Shown here piece after piece: positions 1 to 12,236 of a stretch of DNA of 64,000 nt. Both the position numbers and the translations under genes were made by a program. The notes under the pieces are model-generated. The model was not told where the DNA came from. It saw only the letters and a list, made by a program, of their open reading frames with translations, and searched no databases. The stretch is taken from NCBI GenBank assembly GCA_947625085.1, contig CANQMV010000002.1, positions 1,490 through 65,489 of the forward strand, in the 5' to 3' direction. The first letter of the stretch is position 1. Every line of letters starts with the position of its first letter. This DNA is from an uncultured Bacilli bacterium. GTDB lineage: Bacteria; Bacillota_I; Bacilli_A; RF39; UBA660.

Positions 1-1
1 A

Positions 2-175
2 ATAGGAACAGGAATTGTTAACGATAAGGAATTTACTCATTACAAAATATTTAAAGGTTCAAGCGAATTTGATACTAAGGAGATGTCAATATTTATAGAT
101 GGTGTTATTCAAGAGTGTACTAATTTAGGAATCCCAACATTAACACCAGAAGAAGTTAAGAGGTTTAATTTATGA
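2..175 (+). CDS. Phage protein, C-terminal fragment (gene starts left of the window)
   Basis: Frame is open from the window edge (..SIFIDGVIQECTNLGIPTLTPEEVKRFNL). TGA 173-175 overlaps the next ATG (ATGA). Confidence 0.4.
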   Translation: MGTGIVNDKEFTHYKIFKGSSEFDTKEMSIFIDGVIQECTNLGIPTLTPEEVKRFNL

Positions 176-372
176 AAAAGAAAAGAGAAATATTTATAGA
201 TTGTCCAATTTGCCACTATAATAACAAACTAGATAATATAAAAAGATATGGTTCATGTAAATTATGCAAGACTGTATTAGATAAGAAAGCAAAATACAAA
301 TATGAAATGTATTGTAGATTGCATTTATGGAGCAAGAGAGGAACAGGTTTTTATGAAACTTCGAAGATATAA
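172..372 (+). CDS. Small zinc-ribbon-like phage protein
   Basis: ORF track. Two CxxC pairs (CPIC..CKLC). ATGA coupling to the upstream gene. Confidence 0.5.
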   Translation: MKKKREIFIDCPICHYNNKLDNIKRYGSCKLCKTVLDKKAKYKYEMYCRLHLWSKRGTGFYETSKI

Positions 373-613
373 TGAAAAAAAACATATGTATGAAGATTAT
401 AATGTACCAAATGAATGGAATATTAAATTAATTACCAATGATATGAATGAAATTATTAATTGTTGCCAATGTGGCAAAGAAATGAGGTTTGGTGATAGTT
501 ATACTTCTATGCAAGTACATAATGCACTTGGATTAGGTTATGCAGTTTGTGAAAAGTGCTATTACGAAAAAGAATGGGTAGAGAGGAATAAATACAGAAA
601 TGAAACAAATTGA
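302..613 (+). CDS. Small Cys-rich phage protein (start uncertain: 302, 353 or 386)
   Basis: ORF track. CCQC..CEKC zinc-ribbon-like pairs. Overlaps the previous ORF if 302 is used. Confidence 0.45.
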   Translation: MKCIVDCIYGAREEQVFMKLRRYNEKKHMYEDYNVPNEWNIKLITNDMNEIINCCQCGKEMRFGDSYTSMQVHNALGLGYAVCEKCYYEKEWVERNKYRNETN

Positions 614-881
614 TATATTTGGCAATGAAATAGATGTAAATGATATAGGACCTCAGCAATTAGAAAAACAGGGTGGAAGAATTACGTTAAGGAGTTATTT
701 TAGAAATTGCTATGGTTTTAAAGATAGTTATTACTGTAAGAATTGCAGGTATTTTAAGAAAACAATGAGAAATAAAAAAGATTATTTTAAATGTTTAAAA
801 ATGGGAACTGGTAGAACAGCAGCAACAGATATACGAAAAAATGATATAGCTTGTAATTTATATGAGCAGAAAAGGAGTTAA
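600..881 (+). CDS. Hypothetical phage protein (Cys-containing)
   Basis: ORF track; packed co-directionally. Confidence 0.5.
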   Translation: MKQIDIFGNEIDVNDIGPQQLEKQGGRITLRSYFRNCYGFKDSYYCKNCRYFKKTMRNKKDYFKCLKMGTGRTAATDIRKNDIACNLYEQKRS

Positions 882-882
882 A

Positions 883-1395
883 ATGAAAAAAATCAAGTCG
901 GGGGGCTTGGTTAAAAATAAAATAGGATTTTCAAGATGGATATTAAATTACAAAGAATATTCTAAAGAATTAAGTGATTACAGAGAAGATTATGATAAAA
1001 CAAAATTAGAATTTGAAAATAGAAAAGAAGATTTAGAAAAAGAGCTTGAATCATTAAGAAAAATTTCTAAGGCTGAAATAGATAAATTGAACGAAATTAT
1101 AGTTGAAAAAACTAATATTATAATCAGAGATACGGATTCTTTAAATGCTAGAAATAAAGAGATACAAGAGTTACATAAAGAATTATCAGATAAATTACTT
1201 GAAATTGATAATTTAAAAGCAAATATAAAGCAATTAAATTGTCAAAAAGGTGGGCTTATAAAAGAAATTAACAAATTAAAAAAGGCTAATGAATTTTTAA
1301 AAGCAAATAGAAGAGCACCAAATAAAGAAGAAATATTAGCATATGAAAAAAATATAAAGGGATTATTAAAAAGAGAGAAAGTGGCTAAATCATGA
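883..1395 (+). CDS. Coiled-coil phage protein
   Basis: ATG 883 is preceded by AAAGGAG (871-877). K/E/L-rich heptad-like sequence. The track start 862 lacks an SD. Confidence 0.55.
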   Translation: MKKIKSGGLVKNKIGFSRWILNYKEYSKELSDYREDYDKTKLEFENRKEDLEKELESLRKISKAEIDKLNEIIVEKTNIIIRDTDSLNARNKEIQELHKELSDKLLEIDNLKANIKQLNCQKGGLIKEINKLKKANEFLKANRRAPNKEEILAYEKNIKGLLKREKVAKS

Positions 1396-1466
1396 ATAAA
1401 TTATTTAGAACAATAATCATATTTATTTCGATTATTATAATACTTTTAGCTGTAATGTGGAGATAG
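1392..1466 (+). CDS. 24-aa hydrophobic mini-protein
   Basis: ATGA overlap with the upstream stop. MNKLFRTIIIFISIIIILLAVMWR is a single TM helix. Below the ORF-track cutoff. Confidence 0.3.
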   Translation: MNKLFRTIIIFISIIIILLAVMWR

Positions 1467-1480
1467 GAGAGCGATAAATA

Positions 1481-1708
1481 ATGAAAAATATATTAGGTAA
1501 TTTAATAATAGTAGTAGGTATTTTAGTTGGATTATATGTAGGATTATACCTTATGTTATATGGTGGAATAATACAAATAATTAATGGTATTAATCCATTA
1601 AATGAAAAAGATATAGCATTAGGAATAATTAGGGTATTATTTTCAGAAATTGGAGTATTACCAGCATATTTAGGAATAGTTGAGGGAATGGAAATGAAAT
1701 TTAATTAG
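1481..1708 (+). CDS. Small membrane protein (2 TM)
   Basis: ORF track. SD GGAGAG lies upstream. Hydrophobic segments. Confidence 0.55.
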   Translation: MKNILGNLIIVVGILVGLYVGLYLMLYGGIIQIINGINPLNEKDIALGIIRVLFSEIGVLPAYLGIVEGMEMKFN

Positions 1709-1763
1709 AAGCAAATTATGAATTGTTCGATTAAATAATTATAAAGTATTGGAGTGATAAATA

Positions 1764-1916
1764 ATGATTAATTGGATATATGTAATTTTGGTATGGTCTT
1801 TTATGATTTTATCTTTTGTAACAAAAGGAAATTGGCATTATATTTTTTCGGGATTACAGATGGGTGTTTTTATAGGACAAATACTCTATTTTATAGATAT
1901 TAGGAAGAAATTATGA
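1764..1916 (+). CDS. 50-aa membrane mini-protein
   Basis: SD TGGAGTGA lies 6 nt before ATG 1764. Two hydrophobic helices. Stop overlaps the next ATG (ATGA at 1913-1916). Confidence 0.4.
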   Translation: MINWIYVILVWSFMILSFVTKGNWHYIFSGLQMGVFIGQILYFIDIRKKL

Positions 1917-2140
1917 GTGATAAAGATATTAAGTTGGAAGATTTAGGATATGAAAAAATACAAGATGATGTTAATTGGTTGATATATTCTTTTCAAAAAG
2001 TTTTTAAAATATGTTTTTATAAACCTCAACAAGATTTTAAAATCGAGTGTTTAGATAATATTTATAACACTATTGACATGGAGGAATTACAAGCAATATA
2101 TAACAAATGTAAAGAATTAGGATGGTTAGATGAAAATTAA
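1913..2140 (+). CDS. Hypothetical phage protein
   Basis: ORF track. Confidence 0.5.
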   Translation: MSDKDIKLEDLGYEKIQDDVNWLIYSFQKVFKICFYKPQQDFKIECLDNIYNTIDMEELQAIYNKCKELGWLDEN

Positions 2141-2396
2141 ATTAAAAGATATTATCGAAATTCAATATTTAGAAATGGAAATCTTTGAGGTAGAAGATGA
2201 TGATTATGTAGATTATAGAACAGTTAGAGGAAAAGAAAGAGCAATTTATAATAGACTTGAAAAAATAACTGATAGCAAAGAAAAACAAAGAGAAATAAGA
2301 GATTGTATTTATAAAAATATGTGGAATATTGAAGATTTATCTTATAAGCCTATATGTGATGGATTAAGAGCTTTAGGATATGAGGTGATTAAATGA
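2130..2396 (+). CDS. Hypothetical phage protein
   Basis: ORF track. Confidence 0.5.
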   Translation: MKIKLKDIIEIQYLEMEIFEVEDDDYVDYRTVRGKERAIYNRLEKITDSKEKQREIRDCIYKNMWNIEDLSYKPICDGLRALGYEVIK

Positions 2397-2500
2397 ATAA
2401 AGAATATATAAATAAAATTAGTGATAAAGAATTAAGAGAAAAAGTGAATTATTATGAAGGCTTATTAAAAAAATATAATATTCCTTTAATTGAGAGGTAA
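2393..2500 (+). CDS. 35-aa hypothetical phage protein
   Basis: ATGA overlap with the upstream stop. Fills the gap before the next gene. Confidence 0.3.
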   Translation: MNKEYINKISDKELREKVNYYEGLLKKYNIPLIER

Positions 2501-2501
2501 A

Positions 2502-2786
2502 ATGAAAATATCAGAAATAGAAAATGGTAAATTATATTTTAAAAGTGAAGATGGAGAATACAAAGAACTAGGAACTACTACTGAATTAGAATTTGAATCA
2601 GGTAAAGAAGATGCTTTTACTGAAACTGTTCGTAAAGGTTGGGGTACCAAAGATACATTTGCAATTAGACCAATTTATAAAGTATGGTACAAAAAGAAAA
2701 AAGGTGATAGATTTGTTAGATATTATAAGATTAAACAAGGAATTGACCCCAAAATAATTAAATTATTGATAGGTGATTATACGTGA
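2502..2786 (+). CDS. Hypothetical phage protein
   Basis: ORF-track frame. ATG 2502 after GAGAGG is preferred over TTG 2490. Confidence 0.5.
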   Translation: MKISEIENGKLYFKSEDGEYKELGTTTELEFESGKEDAFTETVRKGWGTKDTFAIRPIYKVWYKKKKGDRFVRYYKIKQGIDPKIIKLLIGDYT

Positions 2787-3067
2787 TAAAGATGAGTGAA
2801 GAAGAAGCTGTAAAAATATTACAATATAAAGTTAATAATGTTAATAATGATGTTTACATTGGTGAATTAAATAAACAAAATATAGAAGCAATAAAAATAT
2901 TATTAAAATCTATCGAACAATTACAACAAGAAAAAGAAGAATTAAACAATATTTTAGCTGAATTTGAAAAATGGCTTTGGGAAAAATTGAATATTAAACC
3001 TGCAAACAAAATATATGTTGGTGAATGTTTAGAAAAATTGCAAGAATTGAAAGGAGATAGAAAATGA
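2783..3067 (+). CDS. Hypothetical phage protein (coiled-coil)
   Basis: ORF track. Confidence 0.5.
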   Translation: MIKMSEEEAVKILQYKVNNVNNDVYIGELNKQNIEAIKILLKSIEQLQQEKEELNNILAEFEKWLWEKLNIKPANKIYVGECLEKLQELKGDRK

Positions 3068-3156
3068 ACAAGAAAAATGGATTTACATTAATTGAATTGT
3101 TAGCAGTAATTATAATAATAGCAATAATAGTTTTAATATTAGGAGGTATAAGATAA
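3064..3156 (+). CDS. Minimal prepilin: 30-aa peptide consisting only of a type IV pilin class III signal plus the hydrophobic alpha1-N helix
   Basis: SD AAAGGAGA lies 7 nt upstream. ATGA coupling to the upstream gene. MNKKNG/FTLIELLAVIIIIAIIVLILGGIR has the canonical G(-1) F(+1) E(+5) prepilin peptidase motif. Stop TAA overlaps the next ATG. Confidence 0.55.
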   Translation: MNKKNGFTLIELLAVIIIIAIIVLILGGIR

Positions 3157-3551
3157 TGAAAAAGAAAATATTAATAATGGGATTAATAATTTTATGTTTA
3201 GGAACAGGTTGTGCGTTTGATAGAGATAGCGATATTGCATCATACAATGTTAGCAAAGAAGCAGATAGTTTTAGAGTGAAAAGAAGAATCACATTTATAA
3301 ATTTAAGAAGTAATGATTATTTATTTACAATTAAAGGTAATTGCTCGATTGATGATAATTCAAGTAATGAATTAGAAGTTATTTGTAAAGTTGGTGAGGA
3401 TAAATATCAAAAACATTTTCTATATAAGTCTACTGAAACTACATATATAGTTGAACAATTAGATTATAGTGAAGTATCAAAATATGATTATGAAATAATA
3501 TTTAAACCTGAAAGTATAATACCAATTAAAATTGAGACAGAAATTGATTAA
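3156..3551 (+). CDS. Phage lipoprotein (possible superinfection-exclusion type)
   Basis: Signal peptide MKKKILIMGLIILCLGTGC with a lipobox-like LGTGC. SD AGGAGG upstream. Confidence 0.55.
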   Translation: MKKKILIMGLIILCLGTGCAFDRDSDIASYNVSKEADSFRVKRRITFINLRSNDYLFTIKGNCSIDDNSSNELEVICKVGEDKYQKHFLYKSTETTYIVEQLDYSEVSKYDYEIIFKPESIIPIKIETEID

Positions 3552-3554
3552 AAT

Positions 3555-3932
3555 ATGAATATAGTAGAAGAAATAAAAGAAATAATAGTTAAATTAAATG
3601 AATTAGATAGATATTTTGAAGACTTACCACAGCAATTAGGAATTCAAGATAGCAAAGAGCAAGATATATTACACTACATAGAAGATAACAAAATAAGTGC
3701 ATTTGAAGCATATAGGCTTATAAAAGAATTAAAGAAAGTTAGATATGATAGAAGAACTATAAAAAACAATTATGAATTATTACAAATATTCAATTCCAAC
3801 AAAAATAAAATTATAAGTGAAAATAATAGGCAATTTTTATTGCAAGATTTGTACACAAAAGAAAAAAGATTAAAGGCTAAGTATAAAAATAGACAATATA
3901 GTGAAGAGGAATTAAAGGAGATTATAAAATGA
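3555..3932 (+). CDS. Hypothetical phage protein
   Basis: ORF track. Confidence 0.5.
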   Translation: MNIVEEIKEIIVKLNELDRYFEDLPQQLGIQDSKEQDILHYIEDNKISAFEAYRLIKELKKVRYDRRTIKNNYELLQIFNSNKNKIISENNRQFLLQDLYTKEKRLKAKYKNRQYSEEELKEIIK

Positions 3933-4255
3933 AATTAGAAGTAGGAATGTATGCTCGAGTTCAAGAATTAAATGAGGTAATAATTGTTAAAATTTTAAAA
4001 GTAGAAGATGATGGTTTTAATGCTGATGATAATATGTATTATATGTTTTCAGAAGTTATAAAAGCAAGTCATAACATTATAGATTTAATAGAAGTTGGAG
4101 ATTATGTTAATGGTTGTAGAGTTATTAAGATTAATTTAGAATCGCCTTTAAAATATGTAAAATGTATAAATGATAATTGTTTTGAAGAAAAAGAAATTAA
4201 AACAATTTTAACTAAAAAACAAATGGAAAATAATTGTTATAGAATAGATGATTAA
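3929..4255 (+). CDS. Hypothetical phage protein
   Basis: ORF track; ATGA coupling. Confidence 0.5.
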   Translation: MKLEVGMYARVQELNEVIIVKILKVEDDGFNADDNMYYMFSEVIKASHNIIDLIEVGDYVNGCRVIKINLESPLKYVKCINDNCFEEKEIKTILTKKQMENNCYRIDD

Positions 4256-4278
4256 TGGAAACTATAAGGGAGGATTAA

Positions 4279-4365
4279 ATGTATATAGATAGAATGATCA
4301 TAGGAATTATTTTAGGAATAGTATTTACAATAGTAGGCATTGTTAATGGTACTATAAAAATGTAA
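4279..4365 (+). CDS. 28-aa hydrophobic mini-protein
   Basis: Strong SD AAGGGAGGA before ATG 4279. MYIDRMIIGIILGIVFTIVGIVNGTIKM is a single TM helix. Confidence 0.35.
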   Translation: MYIDRMIIGIILGIVFTIVGIVNGTIKM

Positions 4366-4404
4366 GAAAAAGACCAAATAAAAATGTAGCAAATCCTACA
4401 TAAT

Positions 4405-4517
4405 TATATTGACCAAATATTACATTTTTATATTGACTTTAACATTGTTTGCAGTTGTTTTATTTTATTTGCAATTATTAACATTTATTAACAGCTATAA
4501 ACATTTGCAAACATTTT
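4405..4517. repeat. Cluster of short direct repeats in the early/late intergenic region
   Basis: TATATTGAC occurs twice (4405, 4429). AACATT occurs four times and TTTGCA three times, interleaved (AACATTGTTTGCA, ATTTGCAATTATTAACATTT, AAACATTTGCAAACATTTT). No ORF. Confidence 0.4.
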
Positions 4518-4569
4518 ATTTTTTTAATATCCATTTTGGTTTATTTTTTGTGCTTTTATTATAAATTAA

Positions 4570-4776
4570 ATTTCGTTCTCTCAAGAAATTAACAAATATA
4601 TAGAAGAAAATATTAAATTAGAATTATTAAAAAATTCTAAATCAACTTATGCAAGAGAATATAGAACATTTGATAATGAAATACCTAAAAAAGATTTAGA
4701 TAAATTTCCAATATTAAAAGAATATAATGGAAAAGATATAAGTTATATAGTTACTGAAAGTATAGAAATATTATAA
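4570..4776 (+). other. 68-codon coding-like ORF with no ATG/GTG/TTG start (gene remnant or non-canonical start)
   Basis: Open from the stop at 4567-69 to TAA 4774-76, 6 nt before the next gene. Codon usage resembles its neighbours. No SD seen. Confidence 0.25.
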
Positions 4777-4782
4777 AATTCA

Positions 4783-5256
4783 GTGGGGTTTGGTAAATAC
4801 TGGGAGGTAATAGTGAAAAATAGTCATTTAACAATTTTGGATATAAAGAAAAAATTAAGAGACTTGAATGATGATTTAGAGACGGAATTAAATAATAAAA
4901 GAATTAATTTTGAAAGAACACAGCCAGCTTCCCCGACATTGAAAGATATAATCGTAGATACATCACATAGCTCATTTGATAAGTTTGCTCATTATGTAAT
5001 TAAAAATAGTGAGTTAGATACAAAAATAGTAACGCTTTTAGAAGAAATAAATAACTATGAATCTTTAATTATAAAAAGAATAAAAAGTATAGCTTTAGCT
5101 AATGAAAAAGAAGCAGAAGTAATAATTTTACGAGAAGACGAAAAATGGAAACGTGAACATTCAGGAAAACCTATGGAGTTTCACTTAATTGCAGAAAAGG
5201 TTGGTTATAGTGAAAAGCAATGTAGAAGAATTTATAAAGATTTTTTAAATTCTTGA
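4783..5256 (+). CDS. Putative phage late-gene transcriptional regulator (C-terminal HTH)
   Basis: ORF track (GTG start). C-terminal ..IAEKVGYSEKQCRRIYKDFL resembles a sigma-70 region-4/ArpU-RinA type HTH. Lies upstream of the packaging genes. Confidence 0.35.
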   Translation: MGFGKYWEVIVKNSHLTILDIKKKLRDLNDDLETELNNKRINFERTQPASPTLKDIIVDTSHSSFDKFAHYVIKNSELDTKIVTLLEEINNYESLIIKRIKSIALANEKEAEVIILREDEKWKREHSGKPMEFHLIAEKVGYSEKQCRRIYKDFLNS

Positions 5257-5994
5257 AAGATGTCCGTTCGATGTCCGCTGTTTAATGTTAAAATGATATT
5301 ATGAAATAATTATAAGTTATTTCAGCGACAATCAAATTTCTCACTTCTCAAAACTACTATAATTTGAGTTGTTCTTTGAAAAATGTATAATGAACCGTGT
5401 GATAAACTATTGCAATATAGCACGGATGTTATCTTGTTCTTATTACCTTTTCGAGAGATTAAAAAGGGGATTGAGTATAAATAGAAGGTAACTTTTATTT
5501 TGAGAGCTACTAAGTAGTTAAAAAGATAACAGTAGTATATTATGAGAGTTTATAAGAGACAGAACTAATCGTGATAATCATAAACTCATCTAGTAGAAAA
5601 TAGATGGAATAACTTAATAGCTTACTAGATTAGCACCTAGAGAGATATTAAGAATGCTAAAAAAGTCATTGTGTAGTTGATATCTAGTGATAGATATATA
5701 AGATTAGAACTGGTATGAGTAGCACAAATCTACATGTAAAAAATTAAATTTAATGGATATTGAAGCGTCAATATTAAGTAAGTAGTGCCTATGCGTGTGA
5801 AAGTTAGTAAGAAAGATTTACTCTAACGTAAAACGGTAAAGAAGATTAGGATTAGCTACCCTATGAGGCTCTTTATTAGTTAGTGCTTGAATAATAAATG
5901 GTTATAGTATATTAATACGAGGAGTATCATTGTATATTTTTTTAAGAACAACTCAAAAATTTAGGACTAATAAGTTAATATTAGTTCTTTTTTA
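5257..5994 (+). ncRNA. Large structured ncRNA candidate (ROOL/GOLLD-class)
   Basis: About 740 nt with no ORF of 60 aa or more on either strand. A 14-bp perfect long-range helix joins 5363-5376 to 5944-5957. Many local hairpins, e.g. 5680-5697 with a GTGA loop, 5545-5587, 5612-5652 and 5756-5773. Ends in terminator 5963-5994 and abuts the tRNA genes. Confidence 0.45.
5963..5994 (+). terminator. Intrinsic terminator
   Basis: AGGACTAATA-AGTTAA-TATTAGTTCT stem (10 bp, one G-U pair) followed by a T-run. Confidence 0.6.
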
Positions 5995-5995
5995 T

Positions 5996-6072
5996 TGAGA
6001 AATAACTCAGTTGGTTAGAGTGGGGAGCTTATATCTCTCTGGTCGTGGGTTCAAGTCCTACTTTCGCAACCA
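5996..6072 (+). tRNA. tRNA-Ile, anticodon UAU (reads AUA)
   Basis: Manual cloverleaf. Acceptor TGAGAAA/TTTCGCA with one A-G mismatch at 3-70. D arm ACTC..GAGT. Anticodon loop CTTATAT. T arm GTGGG-TTCAAGT-CCTAC. Encoded ACCA end. Confidence 0.7.
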
Positions 6073-6096
6073 TTTTAATGAAAGGAAAAGATAATT

Positions 6097-6231
6097 ATGC
6101 CATGTCATAGAAAAGACGGAAATGGTACACAAAAGAAAAAGTACCAAGCACATTTTTTAAAAATAAAAGATTATACATCAAAAGGAAAAACAAACAAAAA
6201 AAAGAAAAATCCAAAAGAAAAGCAAAAGTAG
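6097..6231 (+). CDS. 44-aa lysine-rich basic mini-protein between tRNAs
   Basis: SD AAAGGAAAAG before ATG 6097. MPCHRKDGNGTQKKKYQAHFLKIKDYTSKGKTNKKKKNPKEKQK. Confidence 0.3.
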   Translation: MPCHRKDGNGTQKKKYQAHFLKIKDYTSKGKTNKKKKNPKEKQK

Positions 6232-6252
6232 AGTTATTAATACTTTTTTTAT

Positions 6253-6327
6253 TGCCTCATAGCCAAATGGTAAGGCATAAGGCTTTGAACCTTAGATATG
6301 CTAGTCCGAGTCTAGCTGAGGCAACCA
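6253..6327 (+). tRNA. tRNA-Gln, anticodon UUG
   Basis: Perfect 7-bp acceptor TGCCTCA/TGAGGCA. D arm GCCAAATGGTAAGGC. Anticodon loop CTTTGAA. T arm GCTAG-TCCGAGT-CTAGC (C at position 55 is unusual). ACCA end. Confidence 0.8.
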
Positions 6328-6333
6328 ATTTAT

Positions 6334-6407
6334 CGCAGGTTAGTGTAATGGTAACATTTTAGAATCAGTATCTAAAGATAAAGGTTCAATTCCTTTGCCT
6401 GCAACCA
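6334..6407 (+). tRNA. Atypical tRNA, anticodon CAG (nominally Leu) on a class I body with a 4-nt variable loop
   Basis: Acceptor CGCAGGT/GCCTGCA with a C1-A72 mismatch and a G-U pair. D arm GTGT-AATGGTA-ACAT. Anticodon stem TTAGA/TCTAA with loop ATCAGTA. T arm AAAGG-TTCAATT-CCTTT. ACCA end. Confidence 0.55.
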
Positions 6408-6428
6408 AAAAATGAAAGGAAGATTAAT

Positions 6429-6647
6429 ATGATAAAAGTAGAATTATTAATAGACAATTTTAAAGATAAAGAAAATTTTGATAAGCCTATTAAAGTAATA
6501 AGAAACAATAAAGAAATAACTGTTCAGGGAAAATTATTATTTAAGGGAGATATTTATGAAATTACTAAAGAAAGATATAATTATTTAGCAAAAAAAGGAA
6601 TAGTGTCAAAATTTAAAGAACCTAAAACTGAAATTCAAGGAGAATAA
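6429..6647 (+). CDS. Hypothetical phage protein
   Basis: ORF track; SD AAAGGAAG. Confidence 0.5.
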   Translation: MIKVELLIDNFKDKENFDKPIKVIRNNKEITVQGKLLFKGDIYEITKERYNYLAKKGIVSKFKEPKTEIQGE

Positions 6648-6649
6648 GC

Positions 6650-7123
6650 ATGGCAAAAAGTAAAGTTGAGAAATGGTTAACTCCTGATGGCTTAACTTTA
6701 CTAGGTGGTTGGGCAAGAGAAGGACTAACCGATGAAGAAATTGCTAGAAAAATGAAAATATCCAGGTCAACTTTAAGTGAATATAAAAAAAAATATTCGG
6801 ACATATCGGACACCTTAAAAAAGGAAAAAGAAATAGTTGACTATGAGGTTGAGAATGCTTTATTAAAAAAGTGTTTAGGTTATAATGTGAAAGTTTTAAA
6901 AAATATAAAACTTAAGAAAGTAGAATACAATTCCAAAGGATATAAAAAATCAGAAAAAGAAGAAATAGTAGAAGTTTATGATGAAGTACATATTCCAGCA
7001 GATACTACAGCTCAAATTATTTGGTTAAAAAATAGACAACCAGATAAATGGCGGGATAAACCTCAACCTAAAAATAATGAAGATGAGGGAGTTGTGATAG
7101 TTGATGACCTCTCAAATTATTAA
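6650..7123 (+). CDS. terS: Terminase small subunit
   Basis: N-terminal HTH (..LTDEEIARKMKISRSTLSEYKKKY..) typical of phage TerS. Sits immediately upstream of TerL. Confidence 0.75.
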   Translation: MAKSKVEKWLTPDGLTLLGGWAREGLTDEEIARKMKISRSTLSEYKKKYSDISDTLKKEKEIVDYEVENALLKKCLGYNVKVLKNIKLKKVEYNSKGYKKSEKEEIVEVYDEVHIPADTTAQIIWLKNRQPDKWRDKPQPKNNEDEGVVIVDDLSNY

Positions 7124-8453
7124 TAAAAAAGTTGTTAATATAAGAGATTTAATTATTCCAAAATATCATAATAATTTTGGAGATATATCTCACACTCATC
7201 AAATATATACTAGTGGCAGAGCTGGAACTAAATCAAGTCGTGGAGCTTTAAAAGCGGTTAGAAGAATAATTGACAAAAAGCCTGGTTCAGTAGTTATTAT
7301 GAGAAAGTTTCATAATAAATTAAAAAAGACGGTATTTAAAGAGGCATTAAGAGCAATTTATAGATTGAAACTTAATAAAAAAGATTTTAAGATAACAATA
7401 AGTCCAATGCAAATAACTTATAATCCAACAGGAAATACAATTTACTTCACTGGTAATGATTCAATTGATGATACTAAAGGTATGATAGATGAGGATAGAC
7501 CAATTGTATTGGTTGAATTAGATGAGGTAACAGAGTTTTTTGATAAAGGTGATGGAGAAGATGAATTACAAAACATAGAAGCAACATTTATTCGTGGAAA
7601 TGATGAAGAGTTTGTTATGGAATATTATTTTAATCCACCTAAAAATCCTAAAGCTGATATAATGCTATGGCTTGATAAAATGAAATTGAGAGAAGATTGC
7701 ATACACGTTCATACTGACTATAGAGATGTGCCTGTTGAATGGTTAGGTAAAAAGTTGATAGCAACAGCTGAAATACTTAGAAATTTAGATGAAAAAATGT
7801 ATAACTGGTTATGGCTAGGATTATGTACAGGTATAGATGAAGTAATCTATTATATGTTTAAAGAAGATATTCATGTTAAAGAATTGCAAGAAGACGAATA
7901 TCATAAAATTAATTTTTTAGCAATTGGTGTTGATTATGGGCAAATGAATCCTACAACTTATGAATGCTTTGCTTTAAATGTGGCAGATAAATGTATAAAT
8001 GGAATAGATGAATATTATCATAGCGGTAGGGAAACCGGAAAACAAAAAAGTCCTAGTGAATATGCTAAAGATTTTAAAGAATTTAGAGAAAAGGTTGAGA
8101 GCCAAACTGGTAAGAAGGTGTTATATGTGTATATAGACCCATCAGCAAAAGGTTTACAAGAGGAAATAAAAAGATTATGTCCTGATATTATTTTTCCATC
8201 TGTTGATAATACAGTCGAGTTAGGTATAAATAGAGTTCAAAAGTTGATGTCTTATAGACGTCTTTTTTTAAGTTCTAAGCAAAAGCACTTGATAGAAGAA
8301 AGATATATGTATAAATACGATGAAGATTTGCTTGATAAAGGAAAAGAAGTTCCGGTAAAACAAAATGACCATTGTTCTGATGCAGAGAGATATACAATTA
8401 TGGGATTGTGGAGATTTTTGAAAAATATGTTACCAATTTTAGAAAGAGAGTGA
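7101..8453 (+). CDS. terL: Terminase large subunit
   Basis: 450 aa. Walker-A-like SGRAGTKSS near the N-terminus. Size and position match PBSX/SPP1-type TerL. Confidence 0.85.
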   Translation: MMTSQIINKKVVNIRDLIIPKYHNNFGDISHTHQIYTSGRAGTKSSRGALKAVRRIIDKKPGSVVIMRKFHNKLKKTVFKEALRAIYRLKLNKKDFKITISPMQITYNPTGNTIYFTGNDSIDDTKGMIDEDRPIVLVELDEVTEFFDKGDGEDELQNIEATFIRGNDEEFVMEYYFNPPKNPKADIMLWLDKMKLREDCIHVHTDYRDVPVEWLGKKLIATAEILRNLDEKMYNWLWLGLCTGIDEVIYYMFKEDIHVKELQEDEYHKINFLAIGVDYGQMNPTTYECFALNVADKCINGIDEYYHSGRETGKQKSPSEYAKDFKEFREKVESQTGKKVLYVYIDPSAKGLQEEIKRLCPDIIFPSVDNTVELGINRVQKLMSYRRLFLSSKQKHLIEERYMYKYDEDLLDKGKEVPVKQNDHCSDAERYTIMGLWRFLKNMLPILERE

Positions 8454-9907
8454 TGTTACTGAGATTAAATGATTTTTTAAAAAGTAAAGGTTATGAAACG
8501 AATGATATTGAAGTAATGATGCCATATATACGAACATGGAAAAGCTGGTATGAAAATAAAGTACCTAGTTTTCAAAATTATTATATTTTCAATGGTGAAA
8601 AAAATGTAAAACAAAAAAGATATACACTAGGAATGGGGAAAAAAATACCTGAAGATTATTCTAATTTGTTATTAAATGAAAAGGCAACATTTAAAGTAGG
8701 GGAAAATGAAGAAAATAATGCATTTAATAAAATATTAGATGAAAATGATTTTTACGATTTGGCCAATTCTGGAATTGAAAGAACATTTGCAACTGGAACT
8801 GGTGCATTTGTTCTTAGTTTAGGAAATATAAATTACGATGAAAAAAATGAAACTTTTAGCTTTGATAACGCCAATTTAGTTATTGAATTTGTAAGTGCTG
8901 AAAAGATAAAGCCTTTAACATATAATCGAAAAAAAGTAACAGAATGTGCTTTTGGTGTAGAAAGAGTTATTAATGGTAAAAAATATCTATATGTTACTAT
9001 GCATAAAAAAAATAATATTGGCAATTACGTTATTCAAAATTATTTGTTTCAAGTTGATAGAGGAGATAATTTAATAGATGTTTCTGACAAAATAGATAAT
9101 ACATTTTTAGAATTTGATACTGAAAGTCCTAATCCTTGGTTTTCAATTTTACGACCAGGCATAGAAAATAATATAAGTGAAGATAGTCCATTTGGAATGG
9201 CTATTTATGCTAATTCAATAGATTTATTAAAAGGTACTGATTTAACTTATGATTCTTTTTGCAACGAGTTTATTCATGGCAAAAAAAGAGTTATGGTTAG
9301 AATGGAGGCAGTTAAAGCGGATGTTATTGATGGAACAATAAAGAGGAGTTATGACCCTAATGACGTTGTATTTTATGTATTACCAGAATCTGATTACAAA
9401 AATGGCGAAGTAGTTAAAGAGATAGATATGAAATTAAGAATAGCTGAGCATGAGGAAGGGGTACAATTAGCATTAAACTTATTAAGTGAAAATGTAGGTC
9501 TTGGAACAGGTTATTATAAATTTGAAAAAAATAAAGTAGCAACGGCTACTGAGGTTATATCTGAAAATAGTGCTTTGTTTAGGTCGATAAGAAAACATGA
9601 AATAAGAATAGAGAATTGTCTTTATGATTTATTTAAAACAATTTGTTATATCGCAGGCCATTTTTTACATCTTCCACTAAATGAAGATATGGAAATATCA
9701 ATTGACTTTGATGATAGTATATTTGAAGATAAAAAAGAGATTAAAGCAACAGCTATGTTAGAACTTAACAATGACCTAATAAATCCTATTCAATATTATA
9801 TGAAAGTTTATAAAATGACAGAAAGCCAAGCAAAAAAATATTACAAGAAAGTTAAAGCGGGATTAGAAGAGAAAAAACAAGAAGATGATGAGCCTGGTGA
9901 AGAATAA
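8453..9907 (+). CDS. Portal protein
   Basis: About 485 aa directly after TerL. ATG 8453 overlaps the TerL stop (ATGA). The track start 8408 lies inside TerL. Confidence 0.8.
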   Translation: MLLRLNDFLKSKGYETNDIEVMMPYIRTWKSWYENKVPSFQNYYIFNGEKNVKQKRYTLGMGKKIPEDYSNLLLNEKATFKVGENEENNAFNKILDENDFYDLANSGIERTFATGTGAFVLSLGNINYDEKNETFSFDNANLVIEFVSAEKIKPLTYNRKKVTECAFGVERVINGKKYLYVTMHKKNNIGNYVIQNYLFQVDRGDNLIDVSDKIDNTFLEFDTESPNPWFSILRPGIENNISEDSPFGMAIYANSIDLLKGTDLTYDSFCNEFIHGKKRVMVRMEAVKADVIDGTIKRSYDPNDVVFYVLPESDYKNGEVVKEIDMKLRIAEHEEGVQLALNLLSENVGLGTGYYKFEKNKVATATEVISENSALFRSIRKHEIRIENCLYDLFKTICYIAGHFLHLPLNEDMEISIDFDDSIFEDKKEIKATAMLELNNDLINPIQYYMKVYKMTESQAKKYYKKVKAGLEEKKQEDDEPGEE

Positions 9908-11544
9908 TGAACAAAATTCAATTTGATAGATTATTAAAGCCATTAATAGAAATATATGATGATATAGAATTGGATTTAATAAACAATATTTTAAATAGAA
10001 TTGAAAATTATAAAAATGTGAAAGGTAGTTTAGAGTGGTATTTAGATAAATTAGCAGAACTAGGTATTTTAGAAAATGATAATCTTAAAGTATTAAAGAA
10101 AAATAAATCTAAAATTGAAAAAGTTTTAAAAGAAATAGTAAATAATACTGGAAGGCATAACGAAAATTTAGAACTATTAACATCATATTATGAAAAAGGA
10201 TTATTAAATGTTAATCCACTTGAGATATATAATAGTGAATCAATAAATAATTTAGTTAATAATGCTTTAAAAGATTCAGAAGATATACTTGAATTAATTA
10301 ATACTAAAGCTATTGAAGGTGCCAATCAAACATATAAATATATAATAAATAAAGCATATGTCGAAACAGCTAGTGGAGTTTATACTTATACTGAATCAAT
10401 TAGAAAAGCCTTAAATGAAATGGCTGAAATAGGTATTGAAACAGTACATTATAAAAGTGGTAGAAGTATAGGCATTGAATCAGCAGTTAGAAGAGATGCC
10501 ATAACAAGAATGAATAAATTAGTAGGAGATGTTGAGTTAAAACATTGTGAAGAATTAGGGACTAATCTAGTCTATGTTGACCAACATTTAGGTGCTAGAG
10601 TTAGAACTAAATATACTAAGAACGATTATGAGGCACATGCTGAATGGCAAGGCAAAAAATATATGATAGATGGTTCTAATGATAAATACGATAATCTTTA
10701 TGAAAAAACTGGTTATGGTGAGATGTTAGGTCTTAAAGGGATTAATTGTTATCATAACATGAGACCAACTTGGGAATGGGAAGAAATACCAGATGTTATT
10801 GATGAAGTTGCTAATAAAGAAAAATATGAATTATATCAACAACAAAGAGCTTATGAAAGAAAAATTAGAAAATTAAAAAGAAAAAGATTTGTTAGTGAAA
10901 AAACAAATGATAGTAATTACGAAAACATTAATAAAAAATATCAAGAAACAAGCAAAGAATTTAATAATTGGTTAAAAGAAAATGGCTTAAATAGAGATTA
11001 TGCTAGAGAATATGTTAGTGAAAATATTAAAAATACAGAAAATTTAGCAAGTAATCAAAAAAGTGAATTTGATAAAGTGATTTTTAAAGAATATTTGAAA
11101 AATATTTCTGGAAGTGATTATTTTGAAAAAATAAAAAAATATGAAGATGATATATTTAATCAACCAATTGAAAATGCTATAATAATAGAAGAAAATGGTG
11201 ATGTTTATAAATTTACAGGTGTAGAAGACTATGTAAATATTGATGGTAATTTTAAAAATGCTATAATTACTCATAATCATGTTACTTTTAAAGATGAATT
11301 AGGAGGTTCATTTGGTAAAGATGATTTTAATTTATTAGTAAAACATCAAGATATAAAAGAACTTAGAGCAGTTGATGAAAAGTATCTTTATAAAACGAAA
11401 GTATTAACTAAAATTTCTGAAAATGATTATGATGATGCATATATAAATGTTATTTCAATTGATGACAATGATTATAAACATTTAGTTATGAAAGTTTTAA
11501 ACGAAAGAGGATTGATTGAATATGAAAGAACAATTAGAAAATGA
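9907..11544 (+). CDS. Minor head protein (MuF/SPP1 gp7-like) with a ~190-aa C-terminal extension
   Basis: Position after the portal. The N-terminal ~330 aa look like a minor capsid/MuF protein. The C-terminal part is unrelated and contains ITHNHV..GGSFGKDD. Confidence 0.6.
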   Translation: MNKIQFDRLLKPLIEIYDDIELDLINNILNRIENYKNVKGSLEWYLDKLAELGILENDNLKVLKKNKSKIEKVLKEIVNNTGRHNENLELLTSYYEKGLLNVNPLEIYNSESINNLVNNALKDSEDILELINTKAIEGANQTYKYIINKAYVETASGVYTYTESIRKALNEMAEIGIETVHYKSGRSIGIESAVRRDAITRMNKLVGDVELKHCEELGTNLVYVDQHLGARVRTKYTKNDYEAHAEWQGKKYMIDGSNDKYDNLYEKTGYGEMLGLKGINCYHNMRPTWEWEEIPDVIDEVANKEKYELYQQQRAYERKIRKLKRKRFVSEKTNDSNYENINKKYQETSKEFNNWLKENGLNRDYAREYVSENIKNTENLASNQKSEFDKVIFKEYLKNISGSDYFEKIKKYEDDIFNQPIENAIIIEENGDVYKFTGVEDYVNIDGNFKNAIITHNHVTFKDELGGSFGKDDFNLLVKHQDIKELRAVDEKYLYKTKVLTKISENDYDDAYINVISIDDNDYKHLVMKVLNERGLIEYERTIRK

Positions 11545-11716
11545 ATTAAAAAAGTGGGAAAAAGAGTATTTAAAAGAAAAAAGGCGATTGGAAAATGAAT
11601 ATCCCTATAGAGATAATCAATTAAATAATCTACATCCTCTTAATGAATTAAACAAAAAATATTTTGAAAAGAAAAGAAAAATAATAGAAAAATATAAAGC
11701 ACTCAAAAATAAATAA
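11516..11716 (+). CDS. Small hypothetical protein overlapping the MuF gene end
   Basis: ORF track; overlaps the upstream gene by 29 nt. Confidence 0.4.
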   Translation: MNMKEQLENELKKWEKEYLKEKRRLENEYPYRDNQLNNLHPLNELNKKYFEKKRKIIEKYKALKNK

Positions 11717-11727
11717 AGTGCTTTTAT
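11696..11727 (+). terminator. Intrinsic terminator
   Basis: AAAGCACT..AGTGCTTT 8-bp stem followed by a T-run. Confidence 0.55.
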
Positions 11728-11739
11728 TATGGCGAAGAA

Positions 11740-11973
11740 ATGAAAAAAGAAGATATATTAAATAATTATGTAGAGAATATTAAACAATTAGGTAAAGAGT
11801 TAATAGATAATGCAGAAGCAATAGTTTATGACAAAATCCCTATGATTAGAGAGATTGAAATTTACACTAAAATAACATCAGGTGAAATATCAACATGGGA
11901 TTTGCATTACTCATATATGAGTAATATATCTAAATTAGACTCAAAAAAAACCCAAAGTAAGAGAAAAACATGA
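11740..11973 (+). CDS. Hypothetical phage protein
   Basis: ORF track. Confidence 0.5.
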   Translation: MKKEDILNNYVENIKQLGKELIDNAEAIVYDKIPMIREIEIYTKITSGEISTWDLHYSYMSNISKLDSKKTQSKRKT

Positions 11974-12236
11974 AACAAAAATTAGAAACTGGAGCGATGC
12001 TAAATCCAAAATGTCAAGAATGTTCTAAACGTGATAGTTGCAACAACAAAACATTATGTGCTTATTTAATACCACCAAATAATACTAAAATGAATAAAAG
12101 TCTCATTGATTTACAAGAAGTATTATCTGTTCCATTAAAATTAAATCCAGAGATGATTCAAAAAGAAATGATTAAAAAAGCTATTGAAATAAATATGGGT
12201 ATTGATAATGCAAGTTTAATGGGGTTAAGAAAATAA
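11970..12236 (+). CDS. Hypothetical phage protein (Cys-rich N-terminus)
   Basis: ORF track; ATGA coupling. Confidence 0.5.
   Translation: MKQKLETGAMLNPKCQECSKRDSCNNKTLCAYLIPPNNTKMNKSLIDLQEVLSVPLKLNPEMIQKEMIKKAIEINMGIDNASLMGLRK

Follow-up and report, generated by a model that had tools for sequence, protein, structure and literature searches.

The window, by which we mean the whole 64,000-nucleotide stretch of DNA analysed here, carries a prophage whose genes are tightly packed around a gap at positions 5257-5995. Directly upstream of the gap lies an ORF of 157 amino acids (4783-5256) that has no family assignment and gave a sub-threshold hint of a sigma-70 region-4 helix-turn-helix (E 0.13), and downstream follow tRNAs, small ORFs, and then the genes for TerS, TerL, portal, minor head protein, and capsid. 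The same gene order was found at a related locus, L023, where the ORF in the corresponding place is 29% identical to the 157-aa one. An ORF at 3156-3551 matches the Phage_VG64 family (PF25682) and, among the PHROGs, phrog_478, a recombination directionality factor, which fits an integrated temperate phage. Between 29 and 64 kb, the window encodes RodA, PBP2B, topoisomerase I, a PASTA kinase, and MurE, so that the host (around 25% GC) is of the Gram-positive type. The tRNAs that follow the gap are these:

5996-6072, + strand: tRNA-Ile (anticodon UAU)
6253-6327, + strand: tRNA-Gln (UUG)
6334-6407, + strand: class-I-shaped tRNA with anticodon CAG

A sequence-only reading of this DNA had let all three tRNA genes begin 2 nucleotides past a terminator, which holds for the first one at 5996 but not for the others, since the three are not contiguous. 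It had also described the gap as ORF-free and rich in hairpins, and this was borne out by an ORF scan in which all ORFs overlapping 5257-5995 on either strand measure 33-40 amino acids, the longest one 40. Equally confirmed, by an inverted-repeat search, was a perfect 14-bp complementarity between TTTGAGTTGTTCTT (5363-5376) and AAGAACAACTCAAA (5944-5957), which is the longest perfect inverted repeat of the region and was reached in none of 300 dinucleotide-preserving shuffles (shuffle maximum 13 bp). The + strand also folds more stably than shuffled sequences do (z = -3.1). Positions 5276-5327, which separate the upstream ORF from the element described below, form a small branched set of hairpins with GCTG/CAGC as closing strands; this structure has no T-run and shows no conservation among relatives.

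The earlier proposal for this gap had been a large noncoding RNA of the ROOL or GOLLD class, to be checked by a covariance-model search, and this search was positive for ROOL: Rfam model RF03087 matches 5371-5947 (+) over its full length (model 1-574 of 574) with 136.6 bits and an E-value of 5.8e-30, above the gathering cut-off of 99.1 bits. The match came from an Rfam scan of 1 kb (5100-6100) and was reproduced when that 1 kb was scanned in gathering mode, and the scan of 5100-6100 returned nothing for other large-RNA models. The GOLLD half of the proposal is ruled out: the 1-kb scan gave no match to the GOLLD covariance model even when hits up to E <= 10 were admitted, and scans of the whole window gave none either. 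In size, the element measures 577 nt by the Rfam match and 595 nt with the extension of its closing stem P1 (see below), compared to a family mean of 581, and in the alignment to the model the uppercase ROOL consensus blocks UAUAA, GGUAnnAGUAGC, GUGAAAGUU, GAAUA, and UUGA are present in the window. Every defining ROOL feature that can be tested appears to be present in this copy.

The window nevertheless carries a divergent new copy of this already known RNA family. Its GC content is 29% and its score the lowest of all ROOLs scored here, compared to 154.5 bits for the closest relative (L023), 184.8 bits for L163, and 219-340 bits for typical members. When the covariance-model structure is projected onto the window, 25 of 150 pairs are non-canonical, most of them due to register shifts of the model alignment in P1 and three hairpins. 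One small hairpin of the Rfam model (around positions 449-459) is missing from the window as well as from the majority of the subfamily; at this hairpin, L169, L168, L184, and L180 instead show an extra insertion of up to around 60 nt (A2 columns 601-664; alignment A2 is introduced below).

Scan length was decisive for detection. Rfam scans of the entire 64-kb window returned only the three tRNAs, with gathering as well as E-value thresholds, and the ROOL was still missed with more permissive filters. The loss is therefore due to how the filters act on long AT-rich sequence rather than to a weak match. The ROOL of L023 (3215-3801) was likewise missed by Rfam scans at 50-64 kb, again with both kinds of threshold, and found at around 1 kb. 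Since scans of such length lose ROOLs that score above the cut-off, this RNA is probably under-annotated in AT-rich or low-GC genomes.

Relatives of the element were sought. Neither the region nor positions 1-12000 of the window had a BLASTN match among 50,697 GenBank phage records, and an exact-protein look-up of TerS returned one 1.7-kb contig only, which begins past the ROOL. Searching with a 20-base pattern derived from the best-conserved block identified 18 loci each in GTDB genomes and IMG/VR; this pattern was specific, whereas an earlier, loose 14-base pattern had mostly given chance matches in IMG/VR. The genome loci belong to metagenome-assembled genomes of uncultured Bacilli, Clostridia, and other Bacillota from rabbit, mouse, yak, and other samples. 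Together with the window, 28 distinct relatives form alignment A2 (29 sequences, mean column identity 57%).

We then projected the Rfam consensus structure onto the window and compared it on A2 with slid controls in which partners were moved by 1-3 columns. For P1, the pairing projected from the covariance model was 1 nt out of register and was dropped in favor of the ungapped pairing. The ROOL fold pairs 79.3% of cells, compared to 39-48% in slid controls, and compensatory change is seen at 108 of 162 pairs (51-68 in slid controls), so that the covariation check in homologous phages suggested by the sequence-only reading came out positive. The covariation score of 0.387 compares to 0.08-0.13 for slid controls and was reached in none of 500 shuffles. 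Without any prior structure, RNAalifold arrived at the same architecture on A2, with 112 pairs of which 86 are compensatory. Conserved G-U pairs (e.g., A2 columns 119/145, 464/565, and 666/711) fit the + strand only, which identifies it as the RNA strand.

These patterns of substitution also bear on the idea that the locus serves as a DNA-level feature, i.e., a pac or cos packaging site upstream of terS, or as a short protein-coding gene. Packaging sites often lie just upstream of terminase genes, which is where the element is found, and an ORF of 40 amino acids is present at 5369-5491. However, substitutions keep RNA base pairs including the strand-specific G-U pairs, the closest terminase relatives lack the element, and stops and frameshifts interrupt the counterpart of the ORF in relatives, which settles a check for a coding alternative that had been proposed earlier. 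With the ORF broken in relatives, 5363-5957 reads as noncoding, and we regard a packaging site or small gene as vanishingly improbable.

Taken together, we assign 5363-5957 (+) as the gene for a ROOL RNA (RF03087) borne by a prophage in a low-GC, Gram-positive-type host, with a probability of around 93%. Its parts, all on the + strand and as predicted from the covariance model and A2, are as follows:

5363-5393, + strand: 5' strand of the closing stem P1, containing the 14-nt arm 5363-5376 and partly beyond the Rfam model
5395-5425, + strand: hairpin CCGTG...CACGG with inner CTAT/ATAG (Rfam alignment; 98% of cells paired, compensatory changes)
5427-5531, + strand: multi-branch domain closed by 5427-5435/5523-5531 (A2 covariation, RNAalifold)
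5439-5475, 5476-5502, and 5506-5518, + strand: three hairpins within the multi-branch domain
5534-5558, + strand: 5' strands of long-range helices with partner 5886-5913 (RNAalifold consensus, compensatory changes)
5560-5575, + strand: 5' strands pairing with 5702-5712 (invariant CTAATC/GATTAG core) and with 5665-5669
5587-5606, + strand: variable hairpin taken as P7 by position in the Rfam structure (cryo-EM naming of PMC12286853)
5613-5652, + strand: hairpin taken as P8, bearing loop L8 (Rfam alignment, A2 covariation)
5630-5635, + strand: L8 loop bases TTAGCA, complementary to and covarying with 5655-5660
5655-5660, + strand: J6/8 bases TGCTAA, partner of L8 and counterpart of bridge B4 in the published octamer
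5671-5676, + strand: 5' strand of a pseudoknot, GTGTAG (98.9% paired)
5682-5695, + strand: hairpin with GTGA tetraloop at 5687-5690 (Rfam alignment, A2, RNAalifold)
5697-5723, + strand: most conserved block, TATAAGATTAG...GGTATGAGTAGC (uppercase in the Rfam consensus, invariant in A2, source of the search pattern)
5730-5735, + strand: 3' strand of the pseudoknot, CTACAT, partner of 5671-5676
5736-5792, + strand: variable linker (local insertion in the covariance-model alignment), containing stem 5756-5773
5793-5805, + strand: conserved block GCGTGTGAAAGTT, closing the linker helix with 5723-5725
5806-5822, + strand: hairpin AGTAA...TTACT (51 cells changed on both sides)
5834-5879, + strand: long hairpin with loop TAGCTA at 5853-5858, the positional counterpart of the conserved GUCGCU loop of ROOL
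5886-5913, + strand: 3' strands of the long-range helices, partner of 5534-5558 (RNAalifold consensus)
5915-5927, + strand: small hairpin ATAC-GAGGA-GTAT just within P1 (100% paired, compensatory changes)
5927-5957, + strand: 3' strand of P1, containing the arm 5944-5957

Six local stems had been proposed by the sequence-only reading, and four of them (5446-69, 5587-5607, 5612-52, and 5680-97 with its GTGA loop) correspond to conserved ROOL helices. The other two were rejected: the bases of 5545-87 pair over long range with 5886-5913 and 5702-5712, and 5756-73 lies within the variable linker and is not conserved. The linker itself is conserved neither in length nor in sequence (A2 columns around 480-555) and, by analogy, would be the equivalent of the disordered loop inside the ROOL cage (PMC12286853).

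Covarying stacks outside the nested fold were searched for in A2, and in this way one of the published pseudoknots of ROOL could be placed (5671-76/5730-35); a U-A/C-G swap is seen there in 14 of the 29 sequences. A hairpin that RNAalifold had proposed instead (5719-22/5730-33) was rejected, as changes on both sides are seen only for the pseudoknot. By their position in the Rfam structure, 5630-35 and 5655-60 appear to correspond to L8 and J6/8. When ROOL env-120 was solved by cryo-EM, these two elements were seen to pair between separate molecules, as bridge B4 of the cage (PMC12286853). At these sites, most relatives carry GUGGU/ACCA, three carry UCGC/GCGA, and one carries UUGAUA/UAUCAA. Considered together, the ten pairs of the pseudoknot and the L8-J6/8 contact are 92.8% paired (24-63% when slid), and 38 of their cells show change on both sides, compared to 2-8 in slid controls. 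The window matches over 6 bp with a sequence unlike that of most relatives, which indicates that the L8-J6/8 interface is maintained, and its sequence would fit pairing in cis or in trans alike.

The same evidence weighs on the suspicion that the window holds a decayed remnant that is no longer under selection. Such decay could account for the lowest ROOL score found here (136.6 bits versus 154-340 bits for the others), for the missing hairpin, and for the loop in the L18-equivalent position, which reads UAGCUA and not GUCGCU or AUCGCA as in most relatives. Against it, 109 of the 110 RNAalifold consensus pairs with residues in the window are canonical, the L8/J6-8 match is perfect in spite of its unusual sequence, the pseudoknot is intact, P1 spans 28-30 bp and is followed by a terminator, and the missing hairpin is a lineage trait given that most of the subfamily lacks it. 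The near-complete set of canonical consensus pairs therefore marks the ROOL copy as structurally intact, and we consider a relic very improbable.

The ends of the RNA are best approached from P1. Its arms are 31 nt long and 87% complementary, with 28 canonical pairs, and the 14-bp helix that had first drawn attention is the outer part of this stem of around 30 bp. P1 exceeds the Rfam model, which starts at 5371, by around 8 bp on the outside. Every relative shows such an outward extension by a few bp with different sequences (e.g., TAATGTTC/GAACATTA, ACTATTG/CAATAGT, or TTAGTTG/CAACTAA), and pairing despite differing sequence argues that the extension is real and that the RNA starts at or before around 5363. 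Two local signals flank the stem:

5358-5363, + strand: TATAAT, a -10-like hexamer and candidate promoter element immediately 5' of P1
5963-5994, + strand: terminator-like hairpin (5963-5988; 10-bp AT-rich stem, -8.7 kcal/mol) followed by the T-run TTTTTTAT

The sequence-only reading had noted a promoter-like TTGAGT-16-TATAAT (5364-5391) overlapping the 5' arm. This site is present and does overlap the 5' strand of P1, but it is probably not a functional promoter: both strands of P1 covary and hence must be part of the RNA, whereas transcripts from this site would be without the covarying 5' strand, and its -35 element is not conserved in A2. Promoter-like sites are in any case not in excess in the region (11 versus 10.5 expected from shuffles). 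The TATAAT at 5358-5363 is a lead only, and no clear -35 element was found upstream of P1 in the window. Several relatives without an upstream tRNA show -35/-10 pairs, recognized by eye, that end 5-35 nt before P1.

In the 25-35 nt directly before P1, seven relatives that are without an upstream tRNA (L163, L023, L177, L192, L189, L195, and L171) have a small hairpin with a TATAA-like loop and a covarying stem (GTATC/GATAC, GTGCC/AGCAC, CTGTT/AACAG). It is preceded by GGTAYAGT/AGTACAGT in four of the seven and could be a promoter or processing element; the window lacks it. At the other end, the intrinsic terminator that had been proposed at 5963-94 stands as a weak AT-rich hairpin, which a consensus terminator scan missed because its stem has fewer than three G-C pairs. 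A hairpin and T-run after P1 occur in 14 of the 29 aligned sequences, the window included, with unrelated sequences.

In its prophage, the ROOL lies between the regulator-like ORF and the terminase genes. Of the 46 IMG/VR loci whose large terminase is related (57-84% identity), a ROOL homologue was found in L023 only, and related phages such as L004 have tRNAs but no ROOL at this spot, which suggests that the RNA is accessory cargo in a variable slot. A same-strand tRNA is adjacent to the ROOL in about half of the relatives, and typical high-scoring ROOLs found here also lie in or beside tRNA arrays. This neighborhood invites the alternative that the element acts only in cis, for instance in processing or antitermination, as a leader to the tRNA genes or to the late operon, with no function as a free RNA. 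Its location directly upstream of tRNAs and terminase genes would fit, as would the nine relatives in which the 3' end of a tRNA lies around 2-9 nt before the start of P1, implying co-transcription and processing. Yet the neighbors of ROOL differ considerably between relatives, which have promoter-like elements and terminators of their own; 44 of 46 related-terminase phage loci do without ROOL while many of them keep the tRNA; and other ROOLs accumulate as free, abundant RNAs that assemble alone (PMC12286853). We therefore hold a mere leader to be highly improbable and continue with ROOL as an RNA in its own right.

What such an RNA may do can be framed by work on other members of the family. 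ROOL env-120 forms a protein-free, D4-symmetric homo-octameric cage that is around 28 nm wide, holds the disordered linker inside, and is stable at nanomolar concentrations (PMC12286853). According to the account of Ling et al. in PMC12515178, assembly involves a strand exchange that makes a quaternary kissing loop, and the cage tolerates RNA fused to the 3' end of ROOL, including a tRNA precursor. By extension from these structures, the window transcript would fold into a flat monomer closed by P1 (5363-5393/5927-5957), and eight copies would assemble without protein into a hollow cage of around 28 nm in which L8 (5630-35) of one chain pairs with J6/8 (5655-60) of its neighbor and the variable linker (5736-5792) faces the lumen. 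Judging from the local signals, transcription would begin at 5363 or slightly upstream and in most cases end at the weak terminator (5963-5994), and read-through would join the ROOL RNA to the downstream tRNAs.

To our knowledge, none of the ROOL RNAs has an established biological function. From its context in the window and in relatives, we judge a phage-serving role tied to tRNAs or translation to be the likeliest, with low confidence. A more specific version, in which the cage of this AT-rich gut subfamily works physically together with the linked phage tRNAs, is speculative and unlikely: read-through or unprocessed ROOL-tRNA transcripts would put or hold tRNAs on the P1 stalk at the cage surface. 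If true, the cage could protect the tRNAs of the phage against anticodon nucleases of the host, or supply them in large amounts while late genes are expressed.

With ROOL as described for RF03087 (Weinberg et al. 2017, PMC5737381), the window copy shares the multi-junction fold, a pseudoknot, the variable linker, and the setting in a prophage with tRNAs, and it differs from typical members by its low GC content and score, a P1 that is around 8 bp longer on the outside, the loss of one small hairpin, and variant sequences of L8/J6-8 and of the loop at the L18 position. Compared to the octameric nanocage of ROOL env-120 (Kretsch et al. 2025, PMC12286853), P1, P7, P8/L8, J6/8, the pseudoknot, and the linker can be placed in the window, whose copy has UUAGCA/UGCUAA as L8/J6-8 and UAGCUA in the loop equivalent to L18, the conserved loop of the symmetric bridge B6. 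The cages of ROOL-Efa and ROOL-Firm (Ling et al. 2025, as reported in PMC12515178) are built by the same RNA family. The ROOL of Ligilactobacillus salivarius, an RNA of the same class in a Bacillota host, is reported to reach the abundance of 16S rRNA and to be non-essential (Cousin et al. 2017, as relayed by PMC5737381 and PMC12286853).

Like ROOL, GOLLD belongs to the large ornate RNAs that phages and prophages carry close to tRNAs, and it too builds an RNA-only cage (a 14-mer), but it is over 800 nt long and unrelated to the window ROOL in sequence and fold. In GOLLD, tRNAs have been reported within the linker. Among the ROOLs aligned here, the linker of L189 (A2 columns around 500-540) contains GAGGGTTCGAATCCC, which resembles the T-arm of a tRNA.

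A ROOL in a prophage beside tRNAs is in its expected setting and constitutes no new kind of element, yet it is one of very few natural RNAs that build a protein-free cage. The 29 related AT-rich ROOLs from phages of gut Bacilli and Clostridia provide clear covariation and a longer P1, and their variant L8/J6-8 pairs could be used as naturally occurring compensatory mutants for the cage interface. In 2 of around 47 related-terminase phages, the RNA occupies the same slot, bounded by a regulator-like gene and terS, and this distribution lends itself to genetic comparison of phages that have ROOL and phages that lack it. As a practical warning, routine Rfam annotation of long AT-rich sequence drops ROOL at the filter stage.

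Several minor observations concern the neighborhood of these RNAs. Between tRNA-Ile and tRNA-Gln of the window lies a very lysine-rich ORF of 44 amino acids (6097-6231; MPCHRKDGNGTQKKKYQAHFLKIKDYTSKGKTNKKKKNPKEKQK) that has no PHROG match and is followed by a T-run. In L056, a sub-threshold match to RAGATH-36 RNA (7409-7600; 38.8 bits, gathering cut-off 70) falls between a typical ROOL and a downstream tRNA cluster. The tRNA-Ile(UAU) at 5996-6072 reads AUA directly and has an A3:G70 mismatch; tRNAs of this type recur beside ROOL in L178, L175, L183, L168, L180, and L056. The tRNA with anticodon CAG was called as tRNA-Leu, but at 74-75 nt it is without a long variable arm and hence of class-I shape. 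It occurs in the window (6334-6407), in L023 (4066-4139), and on a short ENA contig, L001 (159-232), as well as in L002, L003, L004, L005, L008, L010, L013, L014, L016, L018, L024, L040, and L041, where it lies around 700-900 nt upstream of TerL; the loci comprise 15 related phage loci and the ENA contig, most of them without ROOL. Across at least 16 loci, the stems of this tRNA covary and the UCAG core of the anticodon loop is conserved. The A at position 72 always faces a mismatched C or A at position 1, and U or A occupies position 37.
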